From a virus: DNA of 16,264 nucleotides. Shown one piece after another: positions 5,182 through 16,264 of the stretch (positions are counted from its first letter, which is position 1; every line of letters begins with the position of its first letter). The translations under genes were made by a program, and so were the position numbers. The stretch lies in the UHGV virus genome UHGV-0349264; one strand, given 5' to 3'. The notes beneath the pieces were generated by a model, which had not been told where the DNA came from, did not search any database, and saw only the letters and a program-made list of their open reading frames with translations.

Positions 5182-7575
5182 TCATACGTCAGCCCCTTGT
5201 GCATATCGTCTGCCACGTGCAGCAGGTGCATTTGATGTTGTGCAAATCTGTCTGGCTTCATCCTGGTCACATGCAACAAAGTGTCCGTTGCAGAACCGCT
5301 GGTAAACCGTACCAAGCGAGCCAAAACGGTTTTTTGTCACAATGATTTCAGCAAATGGCGCGGCGCTACTGTTCTCGTCATATACCGCTTCCCGATAGAG
5401 CATGATGATTGAGTCTGCGTCCTGTTCAATGCTTCCTGAATCACGCAAATCTGCGTTTGTCGGGCGTTTGTTTGGTCGCTTCTCAACATCGCGCGAAAGC
5501 TGACTCAGGGAGATAACAGGCGTTTTCAGGTCTTTCGCCATCGCCTTCAGGCTTCCGGAGATGTGAGCAATTGCGAGATCGTTGCGATCTGCTTTAGGCT
5601 TCTCAATCAGGCCAAGATAATCCACCATGATGAGTGACAGGTTTGGATTTTCCTGTTTATGCCGTTCTGCGATTGAGCGTATTTCTTCGACCGATAACCG
5701 AGAGGCATCGACTACCCATACATCCAAATCTGCAAGCTGACTCATGCCGTTAGCAACACGCGCCCAGCCTTCGTCATCCATCGATGCAGGATTTCGCAGT
5801 ACGCTAACCGACATCCTCCCGGCGTTGGCAATGCTTCGCTCTGCAATCTGCAATGCGCTCATTTCCATTGAGAAAATCAATACCCCGCGCCGGACGTCAG
5901 AACCAGGAATAACGCGGCTTGCCACGCCTTCGGCAATCTTCAGCGCCAGTTCCGTATTGTGCGTAACGATGTAATCCGTTGTCACATAGAGATGACTAGG
6001 ATGGCTTACCATGATGCAGAGACACTCTTCTGGCTCAACAACTTCAACCGATTTGATACCCACACCAAGGTTACCAAGCCTGTTAATCCCGAGATTTTTA
6101 CGTAAACGTGGTGAGTGAATTTGCTCTATCAAAGATGATGGCAACTTCATGCTGACCATGTGTGCGTCAAGTCCGGCATGCTTCTCTCCTTTGTACGTGT
6201 AAACTATTCCCGTCCTGCTGGATTCTTTGGCGGTTCCACCTAAAGATCTAACAAGCCTTACTAATCCTTTAGCTAATTTCTGACTTGATGAACTAAAGCG
6301 GATGCATCCGGACTTCTCAACCCAGCCATCTGTCTCGAGCAGGCCAGTTAAAACACCGGTACGTATTTCTTTGCTAGCACTAAAAATTTCTTCTGGGATT
6401 TCCTTCTCGGACGCACCTTTCCCGATCACCCCAATGCCACGTAGTTTGTCCAATAGTGGGTTCTTCTGGCCTTTTTGGTTACTTATCAAATAATCATTCT
6501 CTCCTACCTTAACCAGTCGCAGTGGTGCAATTGCATCACTCATGCGGCTCAGGACATATTCTTCCGAGTTGGTGAATTTGATGCCTTTTATCAACGAACC
6601 GTCACCAAGTAGAGCCCCAATAACCCAACCATCAAGGGGAATATTTTTACCAAAGTCTCCGGTCAAGGATGGCACTCTTATTCTTCCCTGATAACGTGTT
6701 TTTTGTAGCATCCCAGCCAGCGCATCAGTATCAACAACGCGTTTACCAGTAAATCTTGATGATGAAATTTCCCATAAGTGGTTGTCGGCACATTTCACGC
6801 TACGTCCGTCTTCAAAGGTGACTAAATATGTGAATTTCTTCCCTTGCGGGAAGACGCCAATTACCTCCGAAGGAAGCCCGTCTATTGACGCGATGCGATC
6901 GCCAATTTTGACTTCTCCGTGAGTAGTCCAGGTGCCATCTGCAAGTAAAATCCCTTCGCTTAGCGCCATTGCTTTCCCCATACCAGGACGAGCAGCGATT
7001 ATCACAAGGTCTTCTGCGTTCATCCCTCCGGTGATGGCATCAAGTTCTTCGATTCCGGTCTTCAGGGTATCTGACTCTTCTCCGTTCCTCAGACGCCTGT
7101 CAAGCGTGTCAGTGTAGTCAGTGATGATTTCCCCTAACCGCACCGGTTTAACCTCGTCACGGGGCTTTCTGATGGCTGAGAGACGCTTTACAAGCTCATC
7201 CATCGCCTGACTCGATGCGTCGATGGTTCCGCTCCGAATTGGTTCACGCATTTCATCCATGATTTCCAGCACCAGACGGCGGTGATAGTTATCCGCGACC
7301 ATTCCGGCATATCCCTTCAGGTTTGCGGCACTCGGGCAGTTTTTGCTGGTCATCAGGATTGACGTGAAATGCTCCTCTCCGCACTCCTCGGCAACCAGCA
7401 GCGCGTCGATTAGGTTTCTGTTTCTCGCCTGCTTGCGGATAACCTCGAAGGCTTTTCTGTAGAGCGGAATTGAAAACGCTTCCGGCTCAAGCGTTGCCAG
7501 AACGTCACTGGCGGTTGGAGTTAATCCACCAATCAGCAAGCCACCGATAACGCTCGCTTCGATATCCTGTCTCAT
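5182..7575 (-). CDS. dnaB: DnaB-family replicative helicase interrupted by an in-frame intein in the Walker A P-loop
   Basis: 797-aa ORF. Residues 1-201 (ending ..[13 protein letters not shown]) and 541-797 ([64 protein letters not shown]) align with the DnaB N- and C-terminal domains. Extein total is 458 aa, similar to P22 gp12-type helicases. Confidence 0.9.
5956..6972 (-). other. Intein (339 aa) with LAGLIDADG homing-endonuclease domain, inserted between Lys and Thr of the helicase P-loop
   Basis: The insert begins [15 protein letters not shown] right after GMGK and ends ..DYIVTHN, followed by Thr that restores GMGK-T. Two LAGLIDADG-like motifs are present ([23 protein letters not shown]). 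Block B reads H-L-W, block F contains ECLC, and block G reads T-H-N. Confidence 0.75.
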
Positions 7576-8393
7576 GCAATCCCCCTGTCTGCAAACTTCC
7601 CTTCCCGAACTCCCGTTAACGAATCTTCTCTCAGCAAGTAATCAAAATCAGCCGTCCAGCCCGTGTCGTTGTCTCCGAAGTAAAACGGCTTGGCCTGATG
7701 TACAAACGCCCTGACATACGCTCTGAAACCGTCCACGTTTGGCGTTTTCAGTTGTGGGATGATTTTCTTCAGGCGGCGTTTGCGTTTCTCGTTGACCGCA
7801 ACAGCGTGTGGAAGTCTGTCACCGACTTCGGTGTTGTAGGCGTTCAGGAAGGATTCGTAGTCGATTCGTTCTGCCTTGCGACGTTCAGGTTTAACCTGCC
7901 CATCGCCGCCCCCGTTAGGGGGTAAGGGGGTATTTGTATTTATTGTCTTTTGTATATTGTCTTTTGTGTTTAGCTGACTTGGCTTATACCCATTAGCCGA
8001 CTTGGCTAATGTTTTATTAGCTGTTTTAGCTAATGTTAAGCTGTCCTGGCTAATCCACTGCGAAACCACCTTGTTCACTCCGATTTTCACGCCATCAGCA
8101 ATGAGGAATTTACGCTCAATAAGCTGGCGCTTGGCAGCGCAAACATGAGTGTGATGAATACCTGTCATGGCTGCTATCTGCGTGTTTGTGAGTCGATCCA
8201 TCGGCTTATTGAATCCGTATGTCTTGCGCATGATAGCGAGCATCACCTTCAACTGCCGGACGGTTAAATCAGCCATCAGCAGACTGTCGGTAATCTCGTT
8301 AGCAACGCGCATGAAACCATCTTCGGTATCTGCCACGCGATGCTCCACGACCTCCAGTTGAGGCCTGTAATCAGCTAACTTAACGACGCCCAT
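7572..8393 (-). CDS. O: Replication initiator, lambda O-like (replisome organizer)
   Basis: 273-aa ORF immediately upstream of and overlapping the helicase. The N-terminal domain resembles phage O proteins, the central low-complexity linker is encoded by the iteron array, and the C-terminal domain is non-lambda. Confidence 0.85.
7928..8054 (-). repeat. Replication origin inside the O gene: four ~16-bp iterons plus adjacent AT-rich region
   Basis: Direct repeats AGCTGACTTGGCTTAT (7972), AGCCGACTTGGCTAAT (7995), AGCTGTTTTAGCTAAT (8019), AGCTGTCCTGGCTAAT (8039), followed in the O direction by an AT-rich tract (7928-7970, tatttgtatttattgtcttttgtatattgtcttttgtg). Confidence 0.65.
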
Positions 8394-8870: not shown

Positions 8871-8955
8871 TTCTTAAGATTTCCAATAGTGAATAGTTAG
8901 TTGAAAGGTATGCGTGGAAACGCATATGGCCTTAGTTGGTCAGATATCTTGGGAC

Positions 8956-9011: not shown

Positions 9012-9227
9012 TTAAGCGGCTTTGTGCTCCGGCGGGAACACGTCATCAAGACTTACTTTTGCGCCTAACTTGTTTAGACACGCAACAAGAGCACGGCATG
9101 TTTTAAGGTCTGGGAAGCGACGACCAGATTCCCAATGTCCGATAGCTCCCTGTGTGCATCCAACTGCCTTAGCAAGTGTTGTTTGAGAGATATTCAGTGA
9201 CTCTCGATATTTTCGTAGGTTGCTCAT
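9012..9227 (-). CDS. cro: Cro-like repressor (XRE-family HTH)
   Basis: 71-aa ORF divergent from cI, with RBS GGAGG. HTH ISQTTLAKAVGCTQGAIGHWESGRRFP shares a TQGxIGHW signature with the cI N-terminus. Confidence 0.8.
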   Translation of the reverse strand: MSNLRKYRESLNISQTTLAKAVGCTQGAIGHWESGRRFPDLKTCRALVACLNKLGAKVSLDDVFPPEHKAA

Positions 9228-9337: not shown

Positions 9338-9997
9338 ATGAAAATGAAATGGTATGAACTGGCTAGATCCAGAATGAAAGAGCTCGGCATAACTCAAGAG
9401 AAGTTAGCCGAAGAGCTAGGTATGACGCAGGGTGGAATTGGACACTGGTTGCGCGGATCTCGTCATCCATCTCTTAGTGATATTGGTGTGGTGTTTAAAT
9501 ACCTTGGTATTGATAACATATCATTCAACCACGACGGGACATTTTCACCTGTTGGCGAATACTCATCGGCCCCAGTTAAAAAACAATATGAGTACCCTGT
9601 TTTTTCTCATGTTCAGGCTGGGATGTTCTCTCCAGAACTCAGAACCTTTACCAAAGGTGATGCGGAGAGATTGGTAAGCACAACCAAAAAAGCCAGTGAC
9701 TCTGCATTCTGGCTTGAGGTTGAAGGTAACTCAATGACCGCACCAACAGGTTCCAAACCTAGTTTTCCTGACGGGATGTTAATTCTGGTTGACCCTGAGC
9801 AAGCTGTTGAGCCCGGCGATTTCTGCATAGCCAGACTTGGTGGTGATGAATTTACCTTCAAGAAACTGATCAGGGATAGCGGTCAGGTGTTTCTACAACC
9901 ACTAAACCCGCAATATCCAATGATCCCATGCAATGAGAGTTGTTCCGTTGTGGGGAAAGTTATCGCCAGCCAATGGCCTGAAGAGACGTTTGGGTAA
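9338..9997 (+). CDS. cI: CI-type prophage repressor (HTH N-terminal domain plus S24/LexA-like C-terminal domain)
   Basis: The C-terminal ~135 aa (..[85 protein letters not shown]) match lambda CI as recalled; the N-terminal ~85 aa do not. Start placed at ATG 9338 (or 9344) after RBS AAGGA; the track ORF begins further upstream at 9296. Confidence 0.9.
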
Positions 9998-10370
9998 AGA
10001 GGATAGATGGAGTTTAATGGCCATGAGTATCAAGCGGTCAAAAAGAAGTTCATCTATTCATTGAAAGCATAAGGCCATCTGAGTATATCCGTAATGATCT
10101 GGATATTGTCTATAACATCAATGACCGGACGATAGATATCGGTGAGCAGCGTCCTGTATGGCAGGGTGAGGCAGGTGAAAAAACGTCCTGCCATCAACAA
10201 GAATCAAGTGCATCCGCTCTCTGGACAGATGGAAAATTTATTGGATGCAAAAAGATATGAAATAACACCTGTATAGCACGGAGCTTTCTCTGACCGATGC
10301 ACTTGAAGTTGTTAGGGCTGACCCAGCCTGCTGTTTCTTTAGGTAAGAGAAAAGAGATTTAGGAGATGAA

Positions 10371-10398
10371 AGGTCGCAGAGGTGCGGCCTTTTTTATT
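10371..10398 (+). terminator. Intrinsic terminator downstream of cI
   Basis: AGGTCGCA-gagg-TGCGGCCT (8-bp stem including one G-U pair) followed by TTTTTTATT. Confidence 0.65.
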
Positions 10399-10437
10399 GA
10401 GAGTGGATCTTGAACGGAAATTCTCAAGACTTGAGTC

Positions 10438-10466
10438 TTGCATGCAAATCAATTCCTGGATAAACT
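10438..10466 (+). promoter_or_regulatory. Candidate sigma70 promoter for the 173-aa gene (-35 TTGCAT, 17-nt spacer, -10 TAAACT), overlapped by dyad-symmetric elements
   Basis: TTGCAT-gcaaatcaattcctgga-TAAACT about 33 nt upstream of the ATG. Overlapping palindromes CAAGACTtgAGTCTTG (10425-10440) and TCTTGA..TCAAGA (10408-10429). Confidence 0.45.
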
Positions 10467-10498
10467 CGATCTGAGTCAATAACTTAGAGAGAGAGCAA

Positions 10499-11020
10499 AT
10501 GGCAAAGTCAAACGTTAGCGTGCAGGCATTCAAGGACTTCCTTGAAGAGCTTATGTCGCTGAACATAATGAAGGAGGCCACCGCTCGAAATTTAAAAAAC
10601 TCATCCGCTCGCCTCTTAACGGTAGTCCAAGAAGAGGAAATGGGTGATGTTACTCAGCTTGATGTGAATGAGCTTGCCGAGCGATACATCAACGCAACTG
10701 AGCCGAAGCCTAGCGACAGCAGCATTACTGCATATAAAAGCCGCATGGAAAGTGCAATCAAAAAGTTTGTAGCTTTCCAGTCTGGTGAAGAAATCCCATA
10801 CACTCCGATTGACAAAGAATCCAGTGAGGAAAAAGATTTGACTGGCGAACCAACAAAAGTCGAAGGCAAGGCTAATGCACTTCATACCTATGATCTTCCA
10901 GTAGTTCTTCGACCTGAATCAGGGGTTACAGTAACGATTAAAGGCATTCCTAACGATATCACAAACGAAGAAGCCGAACGCATCTCTTCAATTCTGAAGG
11001 TTTACGTTCGGCCTCAATAA
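10499..11020 (+). CDS. Hypothetical 173-aa acidic protein in the cI-pL moron (rex) slot
   Basis: Clean ORF with no significant overlapping ORF of known function, its own promoter and upstream terminator, and an AG-rich RBS region. No motif I can recognise; hydrophilic, no TM segment. Confidence 0.75.
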   Translation: MAKSNVSVQAFKDFLEELMSLNIMKEATARNLKNSSARLLTVVQEEEMGDVTQLDVNELAERYINATEPKPSDSSITAYKSRMESAIKKFVAFQSGEEIPYTPIDKESSEEKDLTGEPTKVEGKANALHTYDLPVVLRPESGVTVTIKGIPNDITNEEAERISSILKVYVRPQ

Positions 11021-11193
11021 TGCAAAAGCATTCAGCACAATGTCCAACTCCCCAGTCCGACATTGATGCTGTTTAACCAGAGCCTCCAAAAGGAGCCCTT
11101 GTTAAGGTACACAATATTTGCGATGTAACCTTAGCGCGTCTGGTACATTTTTTCAAGCGGTTGTAGGGCTGCCGCCAATATGAGAAAACACAG

Positions 11194-11316
11194 ATGTCTA
11201 CATACAATTTGAATGACCAATTCGATCGAGAAGTTCATGTGAATGCCTATGAACGGATAAGGCATGGAAATCTTGAACATGTGTGTGAGCATTATCGCTC
11301 AAGGCCACACCGCTAA
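11194..11316 (+). CDS. Possible 40-aa ORF ending 5 nt before an intrinsic terminator
   Basis: Hand-translated MSTYNLNDQFDREVHVNAYERIRHGNLEHVCEHYRSRPHR. Weak RBS; it may be non-coding. Confidence 0.2.
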   Translation: MSTYNLNDQFDREVHVNAYERIRHGNLEHVCEHYRSRPHR

Positions 11317-11321
11317 TCATC

Positions 11322-11350
11322 AACCCGGCCTCCATGCCGGGTTTTCTTTT
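11322..11350 (+). terminator. Intrinsic terminator closing the moron transcription unit
   Basis: AACCCGGC-ctccat-GCCGGGTT followed by TTCTTTT. Confidence 0.6.
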
Positions 11351-11531
11351 CCTCTCGCCCCAAAAAAACACATAACCAATTGTATTTATTGGAAAATAAA
11401 TAGATACAACTCACTAAACAACGCAATTCTGATCTCTCCTTACATCGCCGAGGCAATACACCCACGCTAAAAAACAATACTATTAAATACAAAGCGTTGT
11501 AAAAAACCGCCCCGTTTTAGAACAAATTGTA

Positions 11532-11560
11532 TTGACCAAGTGGAGTACATATCGTACTAT
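11532..11560 (+). promoter_or_regulatory. Candidate pL promoter (-35 TTGACC, 17-nt spacer, -10 TACTAT) with overlapping operator
   Basis: TTGACC-aagtggagtacatatcg-TACTAT. The 15-mer AGTACATATCGTACT (11544-11558) matches the OR 15-mer at 13 of 15 positions and overlaps the -10. Confidence 0.5.
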
Positions 11561-11651: not shown

Positions 11652-11749
11652 GATCACCCAACCACATAAGCTGTGGGATGCAATGCCGAAGCAACCGTCT
11701 CAGGAGGAGCTTCGAGATTGCATCGCCAAAGTTTATTCGGGAGGAATCT

Positions 11750-12022
11750 ATGTCCAGAAAAACAGAATTTAAAGGCACCGCAGCTTCTCGCCGTAGAGCT
11801 CGTCGCGCAAACCTGCAAAGTCAGGAGGCGATTAGCTCCGACAAACTACACAGGCCAACCCCATCACGAGTGGTCTTACAATGCAAACGCAAACCAGCAA
11901 TGAGAGCAGAAGTAATAACACTGACAACGTTGACCAGAAAATATGAAGGCTCAACTTGTCTTCCAAATGTAGCTCTTTACGCGGCAGGCTACCGTAAATC
12001 CAAACAACTGACAGCAAGATGA
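11750..12022 (+). CDS. N: N-type transcription antiterminator, P22 gene 24-like
   Basis: 90-aa product from the internal ATG after RBS GGGAGGAA. It has an N-terminal arginine-rich motif (TAASRRRARRANLQ) and a C-terminus LPNVALYAAGYRKSKQLTAR resembling P22 N (..LPGVALYAAGHRKSKQITAR) as recalled. Confidence 0.85.
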   Translation: MSRKTEFKGTAASRRRARRANLQSQEAISSDKLHRPTPSRVVLQCKRKPAMRAEVITLTTLTRKYEGSTCLPNVALYAAGYRKSKQLTAR

Positions 12023-15565: not shown

Positions 15566-16167
15566 GCAAGATTAACTATCAAGCACTGCGTGAAAAGGCA
15601 GAGAAAGCAACATGTGGCGAGTGGTCGCTCGAATATGGAGAGGGCCGATTTGATGGTGATGATGCACTAATTCATCGCGAGGCTGATGGATATATTCCCA
15701 TTTGCAGAATTGAAGGAGCGCATCCTGAAAGCGGTTTCGATGAAGATTTCCAAATGGAACAGCAGGCAAATGCTGAATTCATCGCCGCAGCCAATCCGGC
15801 TACCGTGCTGACACTGCTGGACGAGCTGGAAACAGCAAAAAAGCGCATAGCAGAACTGGAAGCCGAACCCGTAAGCCAAACTTACAAGTTGAACGAGCTA
15901 TCGGGCAACTCTCCGGTAACTCCGGATGGTTGGATAAGATGTAGTGAGCGAATGCCAGAAATGGGAGAGCGACAATGCTATGTGTTAGCAGCTGACTTTA
16001 AAAACAACTACCCGCCAAACATCCCCAACACTCAGGTCGGTGTATATGGCGACTGGTTTAATGATGGCAATCCCACTTGGGATGACGGTGATGGCGAAGA
16101 CCTGTATCTCAAAGAGGTAACCCACTGGATGTCGCTACCAGAACAGCCTCGATTAAAGGAGCTATAA
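15562..16167 (+). CDS. Ea22-like early protein with C-terminal DUF551-like domain
   Basis: Probable GTG start after RBS AGGAGG. It has a central coiled-coil ([18 protein letters not shown]) and a C-terminal motif (..[18 protein letters not shown]) typical of DUF551 proteins in lambdoid early-left regions, as recalled. Confidence 0.65.
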
Positions 16168-16264
16168 TAGTGAACTATTATATCTATTTGTATTAAAAGA
16201 GTTTTTATAAAATAAATCTTCCAAAGCATGTAAAAACACTGTTAATCTTAACGTGTGTGAAACG

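Follow-up and report, generated by a model that had tools for sequence, protein, structure and literature searches.

Several well-described systems resemble the locus that we analyze here. Lambdoid morons are genes with their own promoter and terminator that are expressed from the prophage; rexAB, lom and bor of lambda and stk of phage 933W are examples, and stk in 933W is among the morons that occupy the slot between cI and N. Class II activator sites are exemplified by those of CRP and FNR, centered at -41.5, and by the site of lambda CI at OR2 for PRM. We examined a stretch of viral DNA of 16,264 nucleotides (UHGV virus genome UHGV-0349264), which we call the window, in which a cluster of inverted repeats lies directly upstream of a gene for a 173-residue protein, ECs1184. 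The repeats form an array of hexamers that is a candidate module-specific operator on the predicted sigma-70 promoter of ECs1184, with the ECs1184 protein as its likeliest binder; this reading could well be correct, and we hold it tentatively. As a kind of element, the site is an ordinary member of the promoter-operator class. Two things make it interesting: the Stx-phage gene that it would control is undeletable and uncharacterized, and a recombinase core-binding domain standing alone may here serve as a regulator.

The window is the immunity region of a Stx phage of the VT2-Sakai (Sp5)/phage 1717 type, and it is 99.8-99.9% identical to Stx-converting phages of the VT2-Sakai (Sp5)/1717/Stx1-phage immunity type. 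Annotated records of phages place cro at 9012-9227 on the minus strand, cI at approximately 9344-9997 on the plus strand, the OL operators at 11485-11559, and N at 11678-12022 on the plus strand. The gene for the 173-residue protein lies at 10499-11020 on the plus strand and corresponds to Sp5 ORF23, also called VT2-Sap23; in the EHEC strain Sakai it is ECs_1184 and is carried by the Stx2a prophage Sp5. We take its slot in this phage to be that of rexAB in lambda. When genome contigs were scanned with the ECs1184 protein, a single locus was found. Elsewhere in the window, the minus strand carries two tRNA genes at 1586-1738, placed as is typical upstream of stx in Stx phages, and an open reading frame for 797 residues (5182-7575) that follows an O-like replication gene (7572-8393). 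This open reading frame is unlike what is annotated at the equivalent position in two other phages: a DnaB-type helicase of ~458 aa (1377 nt) in phage 1717 and, in the Stx1 phage, the P protein of ~483 aa (1452 nt). Rfam searches, conducted with gathering thresholds for the whole window and with E-value thresholds for positions 9950-11500, returned only the two tRNAs and a sub-threshold GadY-like match at 11194-11352 (E = 0.41) that is probably due to chance.

ORF23 is one of only two early-region open reading frames that proved undeletable in the Sp5 lysogen, and stable lysogeny has been proposed to require it (PMC5155283); a literature search on the neighboring ECs numbers gave nothing relevant. 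Sakai cultures are reported to have yielded the ECs1184 protein in the TRAPP RNA-associated proteome at an FDR of 0.065, which narrowly misses significance. A labelling assay indicated that it is not a strong RNA binder, and its association with RNA in vivo is at most weak (PMC7618764). This recovery suggests that ECs1184 is expressed from the resident prophage. Sequence searches with ECs1184 against Pfam, NCBIfam, PADLOC and the PDB gave nothing significant, a fold search of BFVD gave nothing at E <=0.1, and the only match in PHROGs is to a family of unknown function. The SAM-like family PF02899 of Pfam was matched below threshold (E = 0.047; 14.4 bits against a cut-off of 22.3), which does not make the protein a member by sequence. 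An AlphaFold model built from 27 homologues consists of a four-helix N-terminal domain (residues 8-95, pLDDT ~90) that has the core-binding (SAM-like) fold, an acidic disordered linker (residues 103-127), and a small beta-beta-alpha C-terminal domain modeled with low confidence (pLDDT 60-69). Judged from this model, the N-terminus of ECs1184 is predicted to be the core-binding, and thus DNA-binding, domain of a tyrosine recombinase; the model contains no catalytic domain.

The first-pass annotation of this DNA had called the gene a moron, and that description is well founded, as the gene is a mobile unit that has terminators on both sides and varied neighbors. The left boundary of the module is an intrinsic terminator at 10368-10399 on the plus strand, AAAGGTCGCAG-AGGT-GCGGCCTTT followed by a T-run, with an RNA fold of -15.9 kcal/mol (z = -3.8). 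Homology with Salmonella phage Oslo begins at position 10371, inside this terminator, and the hairpin is conserved in Salmonella, Proteus, Cronobacter, Serratia and phage SH2026Stx1 despite differing flanks. At the other end, a terminator scan identified a terminator-like hairpin (11322-11343) with a T-run (11322-11352, plus strand), which is likely the 3' end of the unit. Among relatives, the usual place of the unit is between cI and N; it is also found after a Q-like antiterminator (locus L172), after AlpA/DUF3024 (L174), and beside the integrase in Yersinia phage YP3. Given these varied neighborhoods and the terminator hairpin that precedes the gene in most relatives, we conclude that this is a mobile moron-like module.

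Some further observations concern the ends of the module. In SH2026Stx1, the hairpin GGTCGCAGAGGTGCGGCC is conserved in sequence (L005, ~2365-2390) even before a homologue of 38% identity and after different upstream genes. The ~60 nucleotides before the terminator (window 10335-10367) are also common to SH2026Stx1, and a conserved transcript could have its 3' end there. An open reading frame for 40 residues (11194-11316) precedes the downstream hairpin and is also annotated in Salmonella phage Oslo. Most relatives contain a LexA-box-like sequence, CTG-N10-CAG (for example, CACTGAGTTCATATACAGTAG), after a -35 of the TTGAC type (L038 at ~2360-2440, L034, L026, L006, L040, L172, L175 and L036), and a second terminator (AACCCTCtgatGAGGGTTTTTTT) often follows it. 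The window lacks this unit, whose place in those relatives is after the conserved upstream terminator and before the gene promoter. The unit may give rise to a short transcript under SOS control, or it may provide the gene with an SOS input.

The predicted promoter of ECs1184 is weak by consensus. Its -35 hexamer, TTGCAT (10438-10443, plus strand), matches the consensus at 3/6 positions, and together with the -10 hexamer TAAACT (10461-10466, plus strand) at a spacing of 17 nucleotides it matches the sigma-70 consensus at 7/12 positions, which is under the threshold of the promoter scan; TCTTGC and TA(A/G)A(C/A)T at that spacing are nonetheless conserved family-wide. TCTTGC is invariant in an alignment of ten non-redundant promoters of the main group of homologues (alignment A5), the 17-nucleotide spacing is kept in relatives, and the -10 reads TAAACT, TAGACT or TAGAAT throughout the family, including members with 35-46% identity. 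The predicted transcription start is at 10473/10474, which corresponds to about 1,256,578 on the minus strand of NC_002695.2. It had been claimed that the inverted repeats overlap the -35 of the gene's own promoter, and both parts of this claim are upheld: TTGCAT is the only plausible -35 and is overlapped, and the -35 and -10 are conserved in the protein family down to 35% identity. A GATC (Dam) site at 10468-10471 lies between the -10 and the predicted start, where CGATC (10467-10471) is invariant in A5. GATC sites flank the -10 or the -35 in nearly all promoters of the family, and methylation may have a role. The promoter sequence was unmatched in the supplements of a transcription-start study of EDL933, a strain that may lack the gene. 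In E. coli strain 150 (L048, 1995-2015), a 136-bp deletion between AGAGA repeats takes out the terminator, the dyads and the promoter and fuses the gene to the cI read-through region, and in a second natural variant, strain 2159 (L047, 734-1947) IS1203 is inserted at approximately window position 10371, just upstream of the terminator and promoter.

All three inverted repeats that had been noted upstream of the gene are present in the sequence. The first, TCTTGA/TCAAGA, lies at 10408-10413 and 10424-10429 with a spacer of 10 nucleotides, and its left arm is part of GATCTTG (10407-10413), a distal copy of the hexamer that includes a GATC site. The second is a central 16-bp palindrome, CAAGACT-tg-AGTCTTG, with half-sites of the form AAGAYT at 10425-10431 and 10434-10440 and a spacer of 2 nucleotides. 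The third is the palindrome TTGCATGCAA at 10438-10447. The central palindrome covers the first three bases of the -35, its center is ~41 bp upstream of the predicted start, and the dyad (10425-10440) occurs as a single copy in the window.

The repeat cluster is statistically unusual only to a mild or moderate degree, and its main support is comparative. Among 5000 dinucleotide-preserving shuffles of the 59-nucleotide region, the probability of at least as many inverted repeats is 0.003 and that of an arm of at least 7 is 0.05; 0.7% of the 59-nucleotide windows across the 16 kb score as well. CTTGA/TCAAG pentamers reach their window maximum at the promoter, with 6 per 250 bp against 0.66 expected. 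The window has 8 compact palindromes (arm of at least 7, spacer <=4), where random sequence would give 5.2 ± 2.3, so that a single 7+2+7 palindrome is unexceptional by count in 16 kb. One such palindrome lies within the ECs1184 coding sequence, where a perfect 8+2+8 repeat, TTCAAGGA-ct-TCCTTGAA, spans the FKDFLE codons at 10529-10546. It has TCAAG/CTTGA pentamers in common with the promoter dyads and is largely retained in relatives, and it is probably a coding by-product, since the FKDFLE peptide is conserved. Other compact palindromes and repeat-rich spots in the window are TATAATAGTGAACTATTATA (9+2+9) at 16163-16182, TATTTATTGGAAAATAAATA at 11383-11402 just upstream of OL, TATGCGTGGAAACGCATA at 8909-8926 upstream of cII/cro, and, within the O-like gene, a cluster of repeats at 7971-8050, possibly the iterons of ori.

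Homologues that are 52-83% identical to ECs1184 are found in prophages of Salmonella, Cronobacter, Yersinia, Proteus, Providencia, Morganella and Serratia. The blocks that are invariant in A5 are A.TCTTGC, which comprises the right half-site and the -35, TGG.TA.AA at the -10, and CGATC; in the 5' UTR and RBS, TCAA..AC.TA..G.GAG is also invariant, and the spacer between the -35 and -10 varies freely. Both half-sites of the central dyad (AAGAYT or GAGACT beside ARTCTT) are present in 9/10 main-group Enterobacterales lineages of the alignment. The left half-site is CAAGACT with a 2-nucleotide spacer in E. coli, Salmonella and L174, TAAGACT with a 1-nucleotide spacer in L026, Cronobacter and Yersinia, (T/C)AAGATT with a 1-nucleotide spacer in Proteus and Morganella, and GAGACT with a 1-nucleotide spacer in L172; it is lost in L175. 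Thus the spacing is 2 nucleotides in E. coli, Salmonella and L174, 1 nucleotide in six lineages and 4 nucleotides in L044, and in Serratia the dyad is replaced by a direct pair of hexamers. Such variation does not fit a rigid dimeric operator. The first-pass proposal of an operator for a dimeric regulator therefore stands in part: the dyad does lie on a promoter element and its half-sites are conserved, but their spacing and orientation are not fixed.

The substitutions seen in the dyad are from C to T in one half only, and this occurs in either half, giving the consensus AAGAYT/ARTCTT. Since these changes do not preserve pairing, they point to a degenerate protein half-site and not to base pairing. 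The other two repeats are conserved less widely than the central dyad, so that the picture of several interlocking repeats applies to one of them across 9/10 lineages and to the others in a single clade or in E. coli. TCTTGA...TCAAGA is retained only in the E. coli/Salmonella/L174 clade, where its left arm, (G/A)ATCTTG, is a third copy of the hexamer; this distal arm is AATCTTG in Salmonella and L174, and the 9-11 intervening nucleotides vary freely in sequence and length. In the other clade, a direct copy, (A/G)AGAYT, located 4 nucleotides upstream of the dyad replaces the distal arm. The palindrome TTGCATGCAA is specific to E. coli, being TTGCATATGA in Salmonella, TTGCAAATCT in Proteus and TTGCGTACAG in L026, and from this comparison it is probably fortuitous.

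Extra hexamers occur at positions that vary with the lineage, namely -50, -56, -82 and -92 from the ATG; the copy at -50 is found in Cronobacter, Yersinia and L044, and that at -56 in Proteus, Morganella and L175. When 6-mers were counted without bias, AAGACT was the most repeated one in the homologous upstream regions, and the hexamer motif set is enriched 30-fold over the background of the flanks and locus. In the metagenomic relative L044, the -35 carries a perfect 16-mer, AAGACTGATCAGTCTT, and another copy lies over the -10. Scans of viral and metagenome contigs with 5'-UTR motif patterns returned known contigs or chance matches and no new diversity.

A different inverted repeat is found at the same promoter in a distant subfamily of 35-46% identity, in which DUF1627/DUF977 lies upstream and DinI downstream. 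The promoter skeleton is that of the main group, with a -35 of TTGATC/T, 17 nucleotides, and a -10 of TA(A/G)ACT, and the -35 is bracketed by 13-nucleotide inverted-repeat arms, GGATTnnnCGATC and GATCGnnnAATCC. These arms are present in L081-L098, ~60-90 nucleotides upstream of the homologous gene, and have GATC (Dam) sites embedded in them. Among 10 distinct sequences, the arms show 12 changes on both sides against 4.2 in shuffles, with 0/500 shuffles as high; the signal collapses in slid controls, and the arm motif is confined to that promoter within ±1.5 kb. A symmetric element that tracks the gene, with a specificity that changes with the gene, is what the operator of a co-evolving, module-encoded protein would look like.

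Given these comparisons, the central palindrome is probably a binding site for a regulator, and that regulator is perhaps ECs1184 itself. The phages that carry the module have CI proteins that are 18-70% identical (19-67% when only the HTH region, the N-terminal 70 residues, is compared), and their ECs1184 homologues are 54-83% identical. Because CI diverges to this extent and the contexts vary as well (Q-like, AlpA/DUF3024, DUF977/DinI), the gene product is the only protein that is constantly linked to the site. As ECs1184 is also predicted to bind DNA, autoregulation is the most economical model. What follows on the transcription start, on protein binding, on which protein binds and on the direction of control is our inference. 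The AAGAYT/ARTCTT hexamers and the central palindrome would constitute a putative protein-binding site on the -35, and the terminator, operator/promoter, gene and second terminator would travel together as a single mobile unit, so that the binder would be tied to the module and not to the immunity type of the phage. The core-binding domains of ECs1184 would each occupy one hexamer, and these DNA-contacting domains would be joined through the flexible linker of ~30 residues to a C-terminal domain that we assume may dimerize. Domains tethered in this way would accommodate hexamers whose spacing and orientation vary between lineages. The assumption of a flexible tether is needed, since the variation in spacing, the direct repeats of Serratia and the loss in L175 are unusual for a classical dimer operator. 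Binding at approximately -41 could block RNA polymerase, a negative autoregulation that we slightly favor, or could bring about class II-type activation of the weak -35.

The strongest alternative is that the promoter is weak and constitutive and has no dedicated regulator, the conserved block being an extended -35 or upstream element and the symmetry and hexamers being by-products of TTGA/TCTTG-rich sequence and of descent. We consider this doubtful, and it deserves serious weight. The right half-site overlaps the -35 and would be conserved in any case. The palindrome count of the window is near random expectation, two of the three originally noted repeats are unconserved, and the promoter is retained where the dyad is lost (L175) or absent (L076/ENA35). 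We saw no compensatory change in the main-group dyad, and its conservation could therefore reflect shared ancestry together with the constraint on the -35; taken as a whole, the promoters (67-93% identical) are not better conserved than the coding sequence (76-83%). However, the left half-site lies outside the -35 and is still found in 9/10 lineages while the neighboring spacer is free to vary, and the extra hexamers recur at new positions. In addition, the symmetry-preserving covariation in the distant subfamily is hard to explain without a symmetric binder.

A less probable alternative, which we regard as unlikely, is that a conserved host factor of the Enterobacterales, either a transcription factor or a methylation-dependent protein acting with the GATC sites, binds the hexamers and ties the moron to host physiology. 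The dyad is present in E. coli, Salmonella, Cronobacter, Yersinia, Proteus and Morganella regardless of phage background, its position at approximately -41 and the poor -35 would suit an activator-dependent promoter, and GATC sites are recurrent in the promoters of the family. Against this, the operators differ sharply between gene subfamilies (AAGACT, TTCATCGATC and TAGGCCGATC) and do so with covariation, and such subfamily-specific, covarying operators are the signature of a co-evolving phage protein and not of a conserved host factor. We also know of no E. coli factor with an AAGAYT half-site, which counts against a host factor. In a comparison by eye, none of the motifs of CRP, FNR, LexA, IHF, the DnaA box, RcsB and H-NS fits, and none is conserved.

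It is highly improbable that the dyad is an extra operator for the phage CI or Cro. It is located in the immunity region directly downstream of cI, but the OR/OL 17-mers (AATACAATATGTACTTC and others, of the TACA-N5/6-TGTA type) have no similarity to it, and it is retained with unrelated CI proteins (18-23% identity, in Yersinia, Morganella and Serratia) and in contexts that have no adjacent cI. The earlier suggestion that the regulator is not CI is thereby borne out, both by the difference from the annotated OR/OL 17-mers and by the persistence of the dyad across the divergent CI proteins described above. We likewise give very little credence to the repeats being a nucleic-acid structure (hairpin, cruciform or RNA element) or a recombinase core site: the dyad symmetry is perfect and the adjacent gene encodes a predicted recombinase-type core-binding domain, but the single-strand fold of 10404-10470 is no better than that of shuffles (z = 0.40), there is no T-run, and the half-site changes are not pair-preserving. 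Transcription of the dyad is also unlikely, given that a strong terminator shortly precedes it and the predicted start comes after it. On the basis of the fold and the absent T-run we rejected the dyad as an intrinsic terminator or stable hairpin, and we rejected a tyrosine-recombinase core site since the 1-2 bp spacer is too short for an overlap region of 6-8 bp and ECs1184 is devoid of a catalytic domain.

Should ECs1184 be the binder of the hexamers, as we tentatively propose, Stx phages would have a second regulatory circuit that is independent of immunity type, and a recombinase core-binding domain would have been reused as a transcription factor. Without such binding, the conserved block would be no more than an extended promoter in front of a moron of the ordinary kind. 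A broader and rather speculative extension, which we think unlikely to hold in full, is that ECs1184 is the founder of a widespread class of stand-alone tyrosine-recombinase core-binding regulators that act on AAGAYT arrays at their own promoters and maybe at other targets, with lost control leading to the undeletable ORF23. Under the same extension, the targets of other subfamilies might be the GATC-containing repeats, and binding might be sensitive to Dam methylation.

We compared the locus with the closest known systems, among which we count the integrase-fold prophage repressors MrpR/YopR of SPbeta and SroF of phi3T. Like the lambdoid OR/OL operators of lambda CI/Cro and of the Stx1/Stx2 phages (AP005153), the ECs1184 site is a short dyad on a promoter hexamer, located in the immunity region and present in more than one copy near the promoter. 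In contrast to those operators, its dyad is unrelated in sequence to the OR/OL of this phage and independent of CI type, its half-sites vary in spacing and orientation, and it would control a single accessory gene and not the early operons. Class II activator sites resemble it in that the dyad is ~41 bp upstream of the predicted start, over a weak -35, whereas the 16-bp dyad fits neither the CRP nor the FNR consensus and its position is relative to a start that is only predicted. As with lambdoid morons, ECs1184 is an autonomous unit between cI and OL/N that has two terminators and is found in different neighborhoods. It differs from them in that its promoter has a conserved, operator-like cluster of hexamers and in that its product is predicted to resemble a DNA-binding protein and not a surface or exclusion factor, and the gene is reported to be undeletable in Sp5 (PMC5155283).
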